NCBI GenBank assembly: GCA_934155265.1
Contig: CAKPGU010000009.1
Coordinates: 10,702-74,701, forward strand
Length of the DNA stretch: 64,000 nt
From: an uncultured Clostridia bacterium
Lineage (GTDB): Bacteria; Bacillota; Clostridia; TANB77; CAG-508
Reading direction: 5' to 3'
The notes below the pieces were generated by a model. That model was not told the origin of the DNA and did not search any database. It saw only the letters and a program-made list of their open reading frames with translations. Positions 1-36,273 of this stretch are shown here, piece after piece. Position numbers and translations under genes: made by a program. Numbering within the stretch: the first letter of the stretch is position 1; each line of letters starts with the position of its first letter.

Positions 1-621
1 GATGAAACCATAGATAAATTATATAAAGAAATAAAAAGTGATATGGTTGAAAAAGACGTATTTTTAGATAAATTTGAAACAGATGAATTTTCATTAAATT
101 TTGAAAATAGTGATATAAGAGATGATTTATATTATACAGTATTAGAACATAATGTAAAAATGCCAATGCAATATAGTGATACAGTAATAGATAAGGTATA
201 CACTGAAGGAATAATTGCAGAGGATAAACTACAAATTGAATATATATTATTGAGTGTAGTAGCTATCAGAGATATAATAAATGGAAACTTTAAAGATGCA
301 TATATAGCTGAATTTACATGTTCTTTATTTAAGAAAAAACAAAAATTAGAAAGTATATTATCATTAATTAGTAATCAAGCATTACAAGAAAAAATTAGTT
401 TGAATATCACATATTCAGACTATGTTAAAAACCAAAAGAGTGTATTACAATACACTAAAAAAGGTTACGAATTTGTAATTACATTAGATGATTCAATAAA
501 AAGTATTGAGGATGTAGAACGATTAAAAATGTTTAAGATTGTTATAGCCCCAAAAAATATTGCAATGTATAAAGACATAAAAGCTAATAAATCAACATTA
601 AACAATGTTGTTTATAAATAA
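1..621 (+). CDS. hypothetical protein, 5'-partial (frame open to nt 1); paralog of 15828..16826; possible degenerate EAL-like domain
   Basis: No stop in frame from nt 1. Aligns with the C-terminal two thirds of the 15828..16826 product (KMPMQYSDTVIDKVYTEGIIAEDKLQIEYIL vs KFPMEYSELAINKVFNMGITNEDKLVVEYYL; GYEFVITLDDS..LKMFKIVI vs GYRFSLVLDNS..LKMFKFVI). Motif order loosely resembles EAL signatures (E-x-x-E, DDFG-like, K-x-D), but the catalytic residues are not conserved. Confidence 0.5.
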   Translation, partial: DETIDKLYKEIKSDMVEKDVFLDKFETDEFSLNFENSDIRDDLYYTVLEHNVKMPMQYSDTVIDKVYTEGIIAEDKLQIEYILLSVVAIRDIINGNFKDAYIAEFTCSLFKKKQKLESILSLISNQALQEKISLNITYSDYVKNQKSVLQYTKKGYEFVITLDDSIKSIEDVERLKMFKIVIAPKNIAMYKDIKANKSTLNNVVYK

Positions 622-644
622 TTAAGAAAACAGGAGATAGAAAC

Positions 645-2322
645 ATGGAAACATACGGAAGATTTTTATTTGAATTTTTACATCAATTCTTTTCAGGGTT
701 TGGAGAGATATTTGGAGGACTTGGAAAAGGAATATTAAATATATTTAATTTTTCAGCATATTACAATATAGTAAAACATTATGCAAATGATTTCCAACAA
801 TCAGAATGGTTCTTAACAGGACTTGCCATAATTTGCATGCTAGTAGTAGTAGGCTCAATTATTGGTGTAATTATATTCTTTTTAAAGAAACATATAAAAT
901 GGAGAAAGAAAATAATAAATCAAGAGGAATTGTTAAATCAAATTGATAATTTAAATGAGCAAGTAGAAGAACTTGTTGATGAAAAAATGAAATTATTATC
1001 AATGAAAGCACCTGAATTAGGAGTTAATCCTGGACTTAATGCGACATCTGCAACGAGAAATATTACAACAACAGGTGGAGGAGCAGTTGGAGTTGGAATA
1101 GCAACAGGAGCTGCAGGTTCTGCTGTTGGTGGTGCATCTGCCAGAGTTTATGGCGGAGGTGTTGGATTTGGCGGCCGGAGGCGGAGGAGCTTCTGGAGGA
1201 GGTTCTGGCTCAGAAAGTGAAGAACAAGTTGATCCAAATACACAAAGCAGATTCTCAAAACTAACATTAATAGATCAAGAATATGCAAAATACAAACAAA
1301 AAGACTATCACAATTCATTTACATTACCAGAATTTTGTTATATGTTTAGAAACTTTGCAGCAAGCAAATTAAAACTATATTATAGTGAAAAAATGATAAG
1401 ACTATTCGTATCAGCGATAGCATCAACAAAACTAGTAATTCTACAAGGTATATCTGGTACAGGTAAAACATCTATATCATTAGCATGGGGTAACTTTGTA
1501 AAACACCCTTCATGTGTTGCATCAGTACAACCGTCATGGAGGGACAGAACAGATATATTTGGATACTTAAACGAATTCACGAAAAAATTCAATGAAACAG
1601 ACTTCTTAGCATACTTATATGAAGCAGGATATATGGACGAAATATTTACAGTAATATTGGACGAGATGAACTTGGCGCGTGTTGAGTACTACTTTGCAGA
1701 AATGTTATCAATTCTAGAAATGCACAGTACAAAAGACTGGAAAATAGAAGTTGTACAAAGTTCATGGCCATCAGATCCAAAGAAATTAATAAGAGGAAAA
1801 TTACAAATTCCACCAAATGCATGGTACATAGGAACAATCAACAACGACGACTCTACATTCATGGTAACAGATAAGGTATACGATAGAGCGATGCCGATAG
1901 ACATCAACGAAAAAGGTATAGCATTTGAACCAGATGATGTTGATGCAATAGATGTAAACTATTCATACTTAAATGGATTATTTGATAAAGCAATGACTGA
2001 TTATGCAATATCAGCAGCAACATTAAAGAAAATAGACGACATGGATAACTATACAATCAAACACTTCAGAGTTGCATTTGGTAACCGTATTGTAAAACAC
2101 ATGAGAAAATTCGTACCAGTATATGTAGCTTGTGGTGGAGACGAAACAGAAGCAGTAGACTATTTCATGGCTAAAAAGGTTTTAAGAAAATTTGAAGGAT
2201 TAAACTTAGCATTAATTAGAGATGAAATTGATGGATACATAGACTTCTTGGACAAGAATTTTGGAAAAGGCAAAATGAGCGAATGTATAGAATTTTTATT
2301 AAGACTTAAAAAGATGTCTTAA
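645..2322 (+). pseudogene. membrane-anchored coiled-coil McrB-family AAA+ GTPase, disrupted by a +1 frameshift near nt 1171-1180 (ORFs 645..1220 and 1126..2322)
   Basis: The two overlapping ORFs together are collinear with the intact 507-aa paralog 16840..18363. N-terminal hydrophobic helix (LAIICMLVVVGSIIGVIIFF). Coiled coil (EELLNQIDNLNEQVEELVDEKMKLL). Gly-rich linker. Walker A VILQGISGTGKTS. McrB-type Walker B/sensor ILDEMNLARVEYYFAEMLSILE. N-x-x-D motif IGTINNDDS. Distal motif DKVYDRAMPIDI. The frame switch lies in GGCGGCCGGAGGCGGAGG. Confidence 0.7.
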
Positions 2323-2325
2323 AAT

Positions 2326-2396
2326 TTTGTACCGGGTACAAAATGTTATTTTTGGTAAAAATTGTAAAAAAGTGCAAAATGTACCCGGTCCAAAAT
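2326..2396. repeat. REP-A element (TGTACCGGGTACA ... TGTACCCGGTCC, inverted pair)
   Basis: Core GGACCGGGTACA / TGTACCCGGTCC shared with at least 9 other intergenic sites in the window. Lies downstream of the McrB-like pseudogene. Confidence 0.8.
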
Positions 2397-2421
2397 TACC
2401 AAATGGAAGGAAAGAGGAAAA

Positions 2422-34226: not shown

Positions 34227-34294
34227 TCTTTTATTGCATAATTAGTTTGTGTCATAATTGATTTGTGGTATAATCGATTTGCAGTATAATCAAT

Positions 34295-34909
34295 TTGCGA
34301 GAAGAAAGGAAAAATATGAAATACGATATTAATTCAATAAACAAAAGAAAGAAAAATATAAAAATTTTAAAAAAAATATTAGGAGTAATACTAATTATTC
34401 TTATCTATAATATAATATTGGCATTCCTTTCTTCAGATAGTTTAAATAAAGGAGTAGGAATATTTGGATACAAAGCATGTATTATAACATCAAGTAGTAT
34501 GGAGCCATCAATCAATTATGGAGATTTAATTATTATAAAAAAATGCAAAAACAAAGACTTAAATACAGGTGATGTAATAACCTTTAGAAAAAAGCAAGAG
34601 GTTATTACACACCGAATTATAAAAATTGAAGACGGAGTTCAAGAGAATGAGTCGACTTACATAACTAAAGGAGACAACAACAACACTGAAGATATCGAAA
34701 AAATATCATATTCAAATATTGAAGGAAAGTGTATTCTTACAATTCCTAAACTTGGAAAACTAATTTTAGTAATTGATAATAAAATAATAATTTTAGTAAT
34801 TATTCTTATACTATTGATTTTAGGATTTTGGAAAATTCATAAATATGAGCAAATAGAAAATAGGAGAGAAAAAAAGAAAATTGAAGATGATAAAAAGAAA
34901 ATTAAATAG
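34295..34909 (+). CDS. sipW: signal peptidase I, Sec11/SipW type (S26B)
   Basis: ITSSSMEPSINYGDLIIIKK (Ser motif). VITHRIIKIEDG (His). N- and C-terminal TM segments. Confidence 0.7.
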   Translation: MREERKNMKYDINSINKRKKNIKILKKILGVILIILIYNIILAFLSSDSLNKGVGIFGYKACIITSSSMEPSINYGDLIIIKKCKNKDLNTGDVITFRKKQEVITHRIIKIEDGVQENESTYITKGDNNNTEDIEKISYSNIEGKCILTIPKLGKLILVIDNKIIILVIILILLILGFWKIHKYEQIENRREKKKIEDDKKKIK

Positions 34910-35507
34910 AATCAAAAGTGCTAGAAATTCTAAAATTAAATTTCTACAGAATGCAAAATTAAAAAAGGTATTATTAAATATTATATATGTAATTATAATG
35001 ATATGTGTTTTATATAATGTAATATTTTTTATTAATACAACTATATCAAAAAAAGAATATTTTAAGCTGTATGGAATAAGTTTATTTTGCATGAAAAGTG
35101 ATTTGATGGAAGATGATATACAAAAAAATGATTTAGTTATAGTAAAAGAAGTAAATGAATCAAATACAAACGAGTTACAAGATGGAGATATTATTGCATA
35201 TGAACTTAATGGAAAAGTCAGAATAAATAAAATCAATCATCTTGAACAAGAAGGATATGTAACAAAATCCAATAAAAATTATTATCAAGATATAGAGAAA
35301 ATATCAATCAATCAAATTATAGGAAAAAAAGTAATAAATATACCATTATTGGGACTATTGCTAAATATATTGCAATCACCAATAGCAGATATTTTTACAT
35401 TAATATTTTTAATTATAATATTTTATTATAATAGATATATGTTTAGAAAGCAAAAAGAAAGAATAAGAAAAAAGAAGAAAATGTATAAAGCAGAAAGAGG
35501 AAAATAA
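34881..35507 (+). CDS. SipW-like signal peptidase homolog with degenerate catalytic motifs
   Basis: Same domain layout, but the motif region reads FCMKSDLMEDDIQKNDLVIV (SGSMEP not conserved). Possible His in KINHLEQEG. 29-nt overlap with the upstream sipW. Confidence 0.4.
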   Translation: MKMIKRKLNRIKSARNSKIKFLQNAKLKKVLLNIIYVIIMICVLYNVIFFINTTISKKEYFKLYGISLFCMKSDLMEDDIQKNDLVIVKEVNESNTNELQDGDIIAYELNGKVRINKINHLEQEGYVTKSNKNYYQDIEKISINQIIGKKVINIPLLGLLLNILQSPIADIFTLIFLIIIFYYNRYMFRKQKERIRKKKKMYKAERGK

Positions 35508-35508
35508 A

Positions 35509-36273
35509 ATGTTATTCGCAAGACCAGGAAAATTTGAACCATGTGGAATGTTCACAAAAGGGCATTTTGAACTAATACTTATAACAGTAGTATGGATAAT
35601 AATCGCACTAAAAAATACAATGAACAAAACAAAAGAAGAAGTAGGAAAAATAATAAAAAGATGTACAATAATAATGTGGATACTTGAAATTATAATGATA
35701 TCATTTAAAATATCTACAGGAGGTATAAAGAACTTAAACAACTATGTACCATTATATTATTGCAGTTTATTATTATATGCAGGGCTACTAAGTTCATTTG
35801 CAAAAGGCAAACTAAAAAGAGTAGGAGATGTATTTTTAGCAACAGGAGGAATAATAGGTGGAATCGTATTTATGATACTACCAACAACATCACTACCAGC
35901 ATATCCAATGTTACATATAGTAAGTTTGCACAGTTTTTTATATCACGGAACAATGGTATATTTAGGGCTATTAATAAACATAACACATTATATAGAATTA
36001 AATGCATCAGACATAAGATATTATGCAGCTTTAGTTGGAATGGTATGTGGATTAGCATATATTATAAACAAAATATTTGATAGCAATCTAATGTTTATCT
36101 CAAGAAATTTTCAAGGTACACCACTTGAAATTCTATATAATATAACAGGACCATTTTTTACAATAGTAATGAGCATTGCACAGATGACATTACCATTCTA
36201 TATTGTAAAATGGTGTAAAAAGGGGACGGTTCTTTTTTGCACAAATGTCAAAAATGGGACAGATCTTAAGTAG
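35509..36273 (+). CDS. polytopic integral membrane protein of unknown function
   Basis: At least 6 predicted hydrophobic helices. The last ~17 codons are encoded by a REP-B element (GGGGACGGTTCTTTTTTGC at 36222), so the true C-terminus is uncertain. Confidence 0.5.
   Translation: MLFARPGKFEPCGMFTKGHFELILITVVWIIIALKNTMNKTKEEVGKIIKRCTIIMWILEIIMISFKISTGGIKNLNNYVPLYYCSLLLYAGLLSSFAKGKLKRVGDVFLATGGIIGGIVFMILPTTSLPAYPMLHIVSLHSFLYHGTMVYLGLLINITHYIELNASDIRYYAALVGMVCGLAYIINKIFDSNLMFISRNFQGTPLEILYNITGPFFTIVMSIAQMTLPFYIVKWCKKGTVLFCTNVKNGTDLK

Follow-up and report, generated by a model that had tools for sequence, protein, structure and literature searches.

The stretch of DNA analyzed here, which we refer to as the window, comprises 64,000 nucleotides of contig CAKPGU010000009.1 (positions 10,702–74,701; assembly GCA_934155265.1) from an uncultured Clostridia bacterium. 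It contains two paralogous gene sets that together encode six catalytically intact and two degenerate signal peptidases, 11 small signal-anchored proteins and one protein of 2906 residues. Each set also encodes a McrB-like GTPase with a transmembrane (TM) segment and a coiled coil, a nuclease-less McrC-like partner (DUF2357) and a cytoplasmic protein of 520–540 residues. Our preferred interpretation, to which we assign a probability of roughly 0.55, is that these genes are two tandem, diverged copies of a CoCoPALM-type system, a cluster of ∼23 kb that would build a multi-subunit surface filament or adhesin. The name was introduced by Bell et al. (eLife 2024, PMC11090510) for an association of McrB (carrying the TM and coiled-coil region), McrC and signal peptidases, for which a role in pilus assembly was proposed in one paragraph and the analysis was deferred.

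The window was translated and compared with itself by all-against-all blastp; gene calls are given as the prefix “o” followed by the start coordinate of the open reading frame (ORF). For the identification of relatives, one genome per species was scanned for the GTPase of the second copy (B2). Synteny and family counts refer to the best 80 loci of at least 585 species, drawn from metagenome-assembled genomes labelled as uncultured Clostridia, Bacilli, Tenericutes, Mycoplasma or Erysipelotrichaceae. Gene content of these loci was obtained by tblastn of all window proteins, and co-occurrence with the GTPase was counted within 10 kb. The family cut-offs are 51.85 bits (curated) for TIGR02228, 23.3 for DUF2357, 19 for TIGR04088 and 190 for the NF046067 equivalog.

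Gene order and boundaries of the cluster

The gene order is nearly fixed in the 80 other species and reads Sd-x13056-S3-x14262-x14851-A-B-C-S1-P1-x4194(−)-P2-P3-(CC)-BIG-(S2-Sd). Here, S1 to S3 are classes of active signal peptidases, Sd denotes pseudo-peptidases, P1 to P3 and the families with the prefix x are small exported proteins, BIG is the 2906-residue protein, B and C are the GTPase and its partner, A and CC are cytoplasmic proteins, and (−) marks the minus strand. The natural unit of the cluster is window positions 12490–35507, ∼23 kb, which we call copy 2 and to which the loci of the other species are orthologous. Because the conserved order includes them, the genes at 12490–15795 belong to this second copy. 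The preliminary description of this DNA had recognized two paralogous modules, which stand, and had placed their border at ∼15,800, which does not.

The paralogy of the two gene sets is far beyond chance. The GTPases (o1126 and o16840) share 67% identity (E = 0), and significant matches link P2 (o9122 and o21518; 47%, 2e-78), CC (o5092 and o23927; 31% over 544 residues, 4e-74), C (o2422 and o18388; 33%, 4e-63) and A (o43 and o15828; 38%, 9e-40). P1 (o8213 and o20140) and P3 (o9967 and o22429) are 30% and 29% identical, respectively, between the copies. Bases 1–12344 constitute the 3′ part of another complete, diverged copy (copy 1), which starts upstream of the window. On contigs of the same species, the upstream part of copy 1 consists, in order, of a 3270-residue protein, x14851′, Sd′, x13056′, S3′, x14262′ and a full A1 of 348 residues. 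In locus L083 of the same species, positions 1–9977, which correspond to the region upstream of the window, also encode a TM protein of 146 residues with no counterpart in copy 2. Both copies combined extend over more than 45 kb.

B is accompanied by C in all 80 loci, by the S1 peptidase in 79, by A in ∼70 and by the exported families in 51–75, so the association predicted from the window is found well beyond this genome. This co-occurrence and the near-fixed order argue that the genes form a functional unit. B is 63–87% identical across the 80 loci, with a median of 68%, compared to medians of 27–53% for the exported proteins; this much stronger conservation is consistent with a core enzyme beside exposed surface proteins.

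At the 3′ boundary, downstream of position 35507, no window gene is present in more than one of the 80 loci. The interval had originally been extended to 36273; however, none of the 80 related loci contains the TMEM164-family membrane protein encoded at 35509–36273 (Pfam E = 2e-17), which, thus, lies outside the system. The ORFs reported earlier are all present at their coordinates, but one gene had been overlooked, a member of the YAKY class on the minus strand (20759–21406). It is the single exception among the genes of the first 42 kb, which otherwise lie on the plus strand, and its reversed placement is kept in most of the 80 loci.

At least 585 species-level genomes, mostly from uncultured gut and rumen Bacillota with small genomes, contain the system. 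Close homologues of B2 number more than 8000, and the exact B2 protein is found in human gut metagenomes. Two complete chromosomes, of 1.26 and 1.55 Mb, are represented among the 80 loci.

Active signal peptidases and conserved pseudoenzymes

Five peptidases exceed the cut-off of TIGR02228, the family of archaeal-type signal peptidase I, with scores of 59.8–109 bits. Copy 1 encodes two enzymes of the S1 class (3544–4170, 76 bits; and 7462–8169, 59.8 bits, with an acidic C-terminal tail) and one of the S2 class (6722–7339, 109 bits), and copy 2 encodes an S3-class enzyme (13712–14242, 65.6 bits) and an S1-class enzyme (19496–20122, 88.3 bits). The S2-class enzyme of copy 2 (34295–34909), which was examined by Pfam only, matches Peptidase_S24/S26 and is 39% identical to o6722. 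The alignment places the nucleophilic Ser and the His in each of these six proteins, and both residues are lost in the remaining two (12490–13059 and 34881–35507), which is exactly the division into six intact and two degenerate enzymes given in the preliminary description.

The first of the two degenerate proteins, Sd, opens the canonical copy 2 and matches SipW and TIGR02228 below the cut-off. In the second, which is the last gene of the cluster (Peptidase_S24, 28.3 bits), Leu stands in place of the nucleophilic Ser, and the His has been lost as well. Among orthologues, Ser and His are retained in 70 of 79 S1 and 45 of 46 S3 proteins. The Sd family is present in 67 of the 80 loci, and the Ser motif occurs in none of its 77 genes. 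As judged by these alignments, the Sd-type proteins are conserved pseudoenzymes.

The peptidases score 43–90 bits against NF046067, the equivalog family of Bacillus SipW, and do not reach its cut-off of 190. They are, thus, SipW-like in type and not orthologues of SipW, and the earlier label of SipW-type holds only in the former sense, as archaeal-type signal peptidase I. The S1 class shows a further peculiarity. Its KGDNN box is replaced by KG(I/V/L)(A/S)N in 44 of 79 orthologues, whereas S2 (including both window copies) and S3 keep KGDNN. As the Ser and His remain while the box is altered, this suggests an active-site variant specific to the S1 class. In 79 of 80 loci, an S1 gene is the immediate downstream neighbor of C, and Sd and S3 are located upstream.

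Exported proteins

Every exported protein is charged at its N-terminus (positively in P1, P3, the x families and BIG) and contains a single segment of strong hydrophobicity. In alignments from the 80 loci, this segment ends in (S/T)(Y/F)A-W-F in 74 of 78 P1 and 63 of 64 P3 proteins, and in x-Y-A-K-Y in 56 of 65 members of x4194. A looser variant (a small residue, any residue, then Tyr or Phe) is found in x13056 and x14262, and the consensus in x14851 is G-R-Y. These motifs all fit a signal-peptidase site with an aromatic residue at the P2′ position, a feature that is reported (PMC10269814) to render the TasA signal peptide a poor substrate of LepB, the general signal peptidase of E. coli.

In the window, the A↓W(F/W) class (the arrow indicates the predicted cleavage site) comprises P1 of copy 1 (8213–8923, NTYAWWS) and copy 2 (20140–20751, NAYAWFI), together with P3 of copy 1 (9967–11190, STYAWFS) and copy 2 (22429–23496). 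The YA↓KY class comprises x4194 (4194–4865; TM residues 7–25, RTYAKYF) and the minus-strand gene described above, which is x4194-like. The remaining members are x13056 (13056–13688; YA↓LF), x14262 (14262–14834; S↓KY, TM residues 12–30) and the 314-residue x14851 (14851–15795; G↓RY, TM residues 20–38), the last of which is present in 72 of 80 loci. The individual motifs listed in the preliminary description (NTYAWWS, STYAWFS, NAYAWFI, STYAWFT and RTYAKYF) are all present. Its count of at least 12 small secreted proteins is better stated as 11 small proteins and one giant, and only 6–7 of them carry one of the two motifs named there.

TIGR04088, which describes the SipW-dependent-type signal peptide, is matched by 24 of 63 P3 members (best E = 2.5e-5) and is by far the commonest family for P3. 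The window copies fall just under its cut-off of 19 bits, with 18.1 for P3, 14.9 for the P1 protein o8213, for which it is the only family reported, and 12.8 for P3 of copy 1. The YA↓KY class is not recognized by this family. The proposal that these are SipW-cognate signal peptides, therefore, finds support for P3, the largest family; the accompanying suggestion of homology to TasA or camelysin does not (see below).

Profile–profile comparison with hhalign connects the families with probabilities of 94–100% over 180–219 columns, and over fewer columns for two of the links given below. The link between x4194 and x13056 has a probability of 100%, and x13056 is also connected to P1 (97% over 184 columns), to x14262 (97.5% over 181) and to the N-terminal 82 columns of P3 (96%); x14262, in turn, is connected to x14851 (95% over 108 columns). 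At the level of these profiles, the putatively released β-sandwich proteins are one homologous superfamily, of which x13056 is the hub. AlphaFold2 models of P3 and of the x4194-like protein at 20759–21406 (pLDDT confidence scores of 81.8 and 80.1, respectively) consist of an N-terminal TM helix and a β-sandwich; a hinge modeled with low confidence coincides with the site where cleavage is predicted.

P2 differs in architecture from the other exported proteins. In both copy 1 (9122–9901, TM residues 45–63) and copy 2 (21518–22246, TM residues 29–47), a long, Lys-rich cytoplasmic head precedes the TM segment and an extracellular domain, and there is no cleavage-type motif. It is the best conserved exported protein, with a median identity of 53% in the loci, and has a C-terminal W-x-EG-[DQ]-D-x-D-C block in common with P3 (hhalign 92%). 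P2 is likely an uncleaved membrane anchor. P3, in contrast, is the candidate major subunit. A 12/12 match to the sigma-70 consensus (9044–9072) lies before P2 and upstream of P3 copy 1, and an 11/12 match precedes P3 copy 2. On the 3′ side of P3 copy 1, two strong hairpins (11213–11312, plus strand; −53.6 kcal/mol, z = −10.45) are found; the first of them precedes a U run and is terminator-like. P3 is likely to be the major subunit because it has a promoter-like site of its own and the terminator-like hairpins.

The largest exported protein, BIG (25506–34226, TM residues 9–27), is a predicted signal-anchored surface protein with homologues in 53 of 80 loci. Residues 932–1991 contain 18 repeats of the form [VILFY][YFVI]GG[GSAL] at a spacing of 24–40 residues, compared to 0.56 expected. 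This region is rich in Gly and Asn and of solenoid type, and BIG has no Pfam or PDB match.

The GTPase and its cytoplasmic partners

B2 (16840–18363) contains a TM segment at residues 58–76, followed by a charged helical stretch and the GTPase domain. McrB is its only sequence match in the PDB (E = 2.5e-4) and is also found among NCBIfam families (E = 1.5e-4), which agrees with the original identification of a TM protein with a McrB-type GTPase. The motifs of B2 and E. coli McrB are in register: GISGTGKTS compared to GPPGVGKT for Walker A, ILDEMN compared to IIDEIN for Walker B, and INNDDS compared to MNTADRS for the signature. INNDDS reads as NxD with a second D, and the ungapped alignment to NTAD of McrB also permits NxxD. 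Resemblance of the N-terminus to FtsB/DivIC is seen only below threshold (FtsL_2, E = 0.094; DivIC, E = 0.012 in a relative, P0375).

The GTPase gene of copy 1 belongs to the gene set as proposed, but a frameshift within the GGN-rich stretch at 1141–1200 divides it into two ORFs. The N-terminal ORF (645–1220; 191 residues, TM residues 62–80) encodes the TM and coiled-coil region with a Gly-rich linker at its end and is 43% identical to residues 1–133 of B2. The GTPase ORF (1126–2322; 384/398 residues) overlaps it in another frame and is 67% identical to residues 140–507 of B2. Since 11 contigs, each recovered from independent metagenomic samples, encode the identical 191-residue product, the split is not an assembly error; it may represent recent pseudogenization, a functional split or programmed frameshifting.

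C1 (2422–3543) and C2 (18388–19524) match DUF2357 with 29.4 and 48.3 bits, and C2 contains a charged insert. C adjoins B in 80 of 80 loci. Searches of Pfam and the PDB detected neither a nuclease domain nor a PDB match in C. The A protein is represented in copy 1 by a C-terminal part cut by the start of the window (1–621), which is 99.5% identical to residues 157–348 of the full gene in locus L083, and in copy 2 by a cytoplasmic protein of 332 residues (15828–16826), whose gene lies directly upstream of B in 71 of 80 loci. A has no TM segment, no family in Pfam, NCBIfam or the PDB, and no PDB match at E ≤ 10. It had been labelled as degenerate EAL-like, a label that is unsupported: when 50 members of the family were searched, EAL was matched by only one, with E = 0.035.

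The CC proteins are CC1 (5092–6714), a highly charged cytoplasmic protein of 540 residues without a TM segment, and CC2 (23927–25489), a charged cytoplasmic protein of 520 residues; within the flank, 24 of the 80 loci have CC beside P3 or BIG. Y (11388–12344) is a cytoplasmic protein of 318 residues with a conserved C-terminal domain. Of the 80 loci, 19 carry its gene close to the cluster, and the gene is then often encoded on the other strand. Neither CC nor Y has a family match.

Relationship to known systems

Bell et al. described a large clade in which the McrB GTPase is fused to an FtsB-like TM and coiled-coil domain. They reported that the NxD signature in CoCoPALM is usually followed by E or D, that the McrC homologue is often nuclease-less, and that DUF2357 corresponds to the N-terminal domain of McrC that activates the McrB ring (PMC11090510). 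The present cluster resembles this group in the TM and coiled-coil N-terminus of its McrB-like GTPase, in the DUF2357 partner with a charged or coiled insert and no nuclease, and in the associated signal-peptidase genes; its sequence INNDDS may be read as NxD with a second D. Because the core of B, C and peptidases shows the testable features of CoCoPALM, we regard the arrangement as a member of this named, uncharacterized class. The coupling to McrB is, thus, not new, although it had been presented as undescribed. Our literature search found no later paper on CoCoPALM, no CoCoPALM detail in the supplements of the eLife 2024 paper, and nothing relevant on SipW with McrB or on pili in RF39/RFN20. 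As far as this search goes, the present work gives the first anatomy of such a system: three active peptidase classes with conserved pseudo-peptidases, an exported β-sandwich superfamily with A↓WF and A↓KY motifs, a giant protein with repeats, proteins A, CC and Y, and a tandem duplication.

The cluster also recalls tapA-sipW-tasA of B. subtilis and calY/sipW of B. cereus, in which a dedicated archaeal-type peptidase is encoded beside its secreted substrates. Further likenesses to tapA-sipW-tasA are the SipW-dependent-type signal peptide with an aromatic P2′ residue and the β-sandwich or jelly-roll subunits with accessory subunits. It differs in the absence of detectable sequence homology to TasA, in peptidase scores of 60–90 bits, far below the cut-off of 190 for the SipW equivalog, and in its composition: there are 6–7 families of subunits where tapA-sipW-tasA has two, more than one peptidase, additional pseudo-peptidases, and the GTPase module, which is absent from TasA systems. 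The Tafi pilus loci of haloarchaea (TafA–G) and the AbpX-type loci of the TasA superfamily encode a major subunit, a tip or initiator, an adaptor, an anchor and a dedicated peptidase with a non-catalytic partner. They are, thus, comparable as multi-component loci with a dedicated signal peptidase and a non-catalytic accessory partner; however, Tafi uses Tat export and a DUF5305 accessory protein, and a nucleoside triphosphatase (NTPase) is not reported as a conserved component of either locus. With McrBC, the cluster shares an AAA+ (AAA_5) GTPase with McrB-type motifs and a partner with the N-terminal activator domain of McrC. In contrast to McrBC, it has no DNA-binding domain and no PD-(D/E)xK nuclease, and its GTPase is membrane-anchored within a cluster of surface proteins.

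Proposed mechanism and alternative explanations

In the mechanism we propose, seven exported families (P1, P3, x4194, x13056, x14262, x14851 and BIG) would enter the membrane via Sec and be cut by the three dedicated archaeal/ER-type peptidase classes after a small residue, with an aromatic residue at P2′, at (S/T)(Y/F)A↓WF, xYA↓KY, S↓KY or G↓RY. In the gene order, S1 stands beside P1, P2 and P3, S3 between x13056 and x14262/x14851, and S2 beside BIG. The β-sandwich subunits would then polymerize on the cell surface, probably by donation of an N-terminal strand as in the TasA superfamily. P3 would be the major subunit and the small paralogues minor, adaptor or tip subunits; P2 would anchor the structure in the membrane, and BIG would be an adhesin, either distal or separate. 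The pseudo-peptidases could serve as non-catalytic partners that bind signal peptides or strands. Finally, the membrane-tethered B ring, activated by the nuclease-less C and acting with A, CC and Y, may gate or energize export, processing or assembly. This last step is the least certain.

Several observations weigh against this interpretation. Pfam and NCBIfam searches with all window proteins revealed no connection to TasA or Peptidase_M73, and Peptidase_M73 is not among the 25 most-matched Pfam families listed for 148 members of the superfamily. PDB profile searches with the x4194 and P3 families did not retrieve TasA. Direct hhalign comparison of seven family profiles with TasA (a query 100% identical to PDB 8AUR, residues 28–261) gave probabilities of at most 8%, with short local alignments that are co-linear. 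A Foldseek search of the PDB with the P3 model, a check the preliminary description had looked to for TasA/camelysin or pilin-like folds, yielded nothing at E ≤ 0.001, and neither sequence searches nor Foldseek gave a significant link to TasA or to any pilin. In addition, the known TasA-type and other donor-strand filaments polymerize without any NTPase, and as a result the GTPase here has no role based on precedent. The promoter-like matches are no commoner than in shuffled sequence, the host organisms are uncultured, and we infer cleavage, polymerization and the function of the GTPase from sequence features and co-occurrence.

A structural comparison with the small protein model listed SID1 (7.1), HA-70 (6.4), EbpB (5.9), RrgB (5.5) and the TasA fiber (5.3), the last with the longest alignment (135 residues) among the listed matches. 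Overall, the observations of the preliminary description were largely borne out, and the function it proposed is a reasonable one; its connection to TasA is unproven, its EAL label was wrong and its claim of novelty was overstated.

The CoCoPALM-type assembly system set out above can be taken further. In a stronger form, which we offer only tentatively, the B ring and the nuclease-less C would be the motor or gate of a new Gram-positive pilus pathway, with strand-donating subunits and pseudo-peptidases acting as chaperones. A different explanation, which seems to us rather unlikely, is that the locus specifies a surface coat or adhesins without filaments: the exported proteins would be secreted or anchored adhesins or lectins, the peptidases specialized for them, and the GTPase a regulator of their export.

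It is more doubtful still that B and C, perhaps with A, CC and Y, form a McrBC-derived anti-phage or abortive-infection module that sits beside, and perhaps guards, a pilus locus used as a phage receptor. B2 and the GTPase piece of B1 do match the phage-defense candidate PDC-M26A of PADLOC (E = 4e-35 and 7e-37, respectively), and the closest described relatives, the CoCoNuTs, are predicted defense systems. The B family is also large, with 847 clusters (50% identity) at E ≤ 1e-30 in a hidden Markov model search. Of these, ∼35 share the ∼500-residue architecture; many are 600–870 residues long, have only the C-terminal GTPase in common, with weak AAA_5 matches, and carry other N-terminal domains. 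However, neither a nuclease nor any other effector could be detected in the C, A, CC and Y proteins, and PADLOC gave no match for these four proteins or for P2. Where McrB has its DNA-binding N-terminal domain, B has a membrane anchor instead. Moreover, the fixed place of B among peptidase and subunit genes in 80 of 80 loci, at the level of identity given above, is unlike the sporadic occurrence and fast movement of defense islands. We reject, as very unlikely, the view that the locus is a mobile element or the remnant of a prophage, or that unrelated genes have come together by chance. The tandem copies and the frameshift could point to recent duplication or decay, but the base composition is uniform, synteny extends across 80 species, polA flanks the cluster, and Pfam shows no integrase or phage gene within it.

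Repeats and neighboring genes

The window is AT-rich (∼27% G+C). Palindromic units of 35 nucleotides occur in tandem at 23495–23847, and also at 7341–7421 and 42857–42978. Each unit has the form TTACCA-n-TAGGGGACACCCCTTA-n-TGGTAA followed by an A/T run and would fold into a modest hairpin followed by U7. The array at 23495–23847, between P3 and CC of copy 2, consists of three plus five inverted copies, with 108-nucleotide arms that are 91% complementary and an AT-rich spacer of 71 nucleotides. The window contains 12 occurrences of the spacer motif GGTAACTTTTTTNACCA, compared to 0.1 expected. The array could function as a set of terminators or as an invertible switch. We considered whether it might be a regulatory feature that is conserved, and rejected this because it is confined to this species; it is not a conserved part of the system.

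Downstream of the cluster, the translations of 36396–42331, which were read by eye, suggest housekeeping genes: DNA polymerase I (polA), a small SLT-like transglycosylase, a HAD-type phosphatase, an Xaa-Pro peptidase and a multi-pass membrane protein resembling a prepilin (A24) peptidase. RNase P RNA (class A, 290 bits) is located at 42445–42799 and 6S RNA (78 bits) at 50154–50366.

Biological significance

This cluster links a McrBC-type GTPase to extracellular protein assembly, a connection that has been noted in one paragraph and never analyzed. If the stronger form offered tentatively above is correct, the cluster would encode the first machine that assembles a TasA-like or donor-strand filament in an NTP-dependent manner, and would be a clear example of the motor of a restriction enzyme being recruited to cell-surface biogenesis. 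The two copies occupy more than 45 kb, and the closest complete genome among the related loci measures ∼1.5 Mb. The system is likely the main surface structure of lineages for which there is no cell biology and is, therefore, relevant to their attachment to hosts, other cells and phages. The gene-by-gene anatomy, with its substrate classes, pseudo-peptidases, candidate anchor and candidate major subunit, makes the pilus-assembly proposal for CoCoPALM testable.

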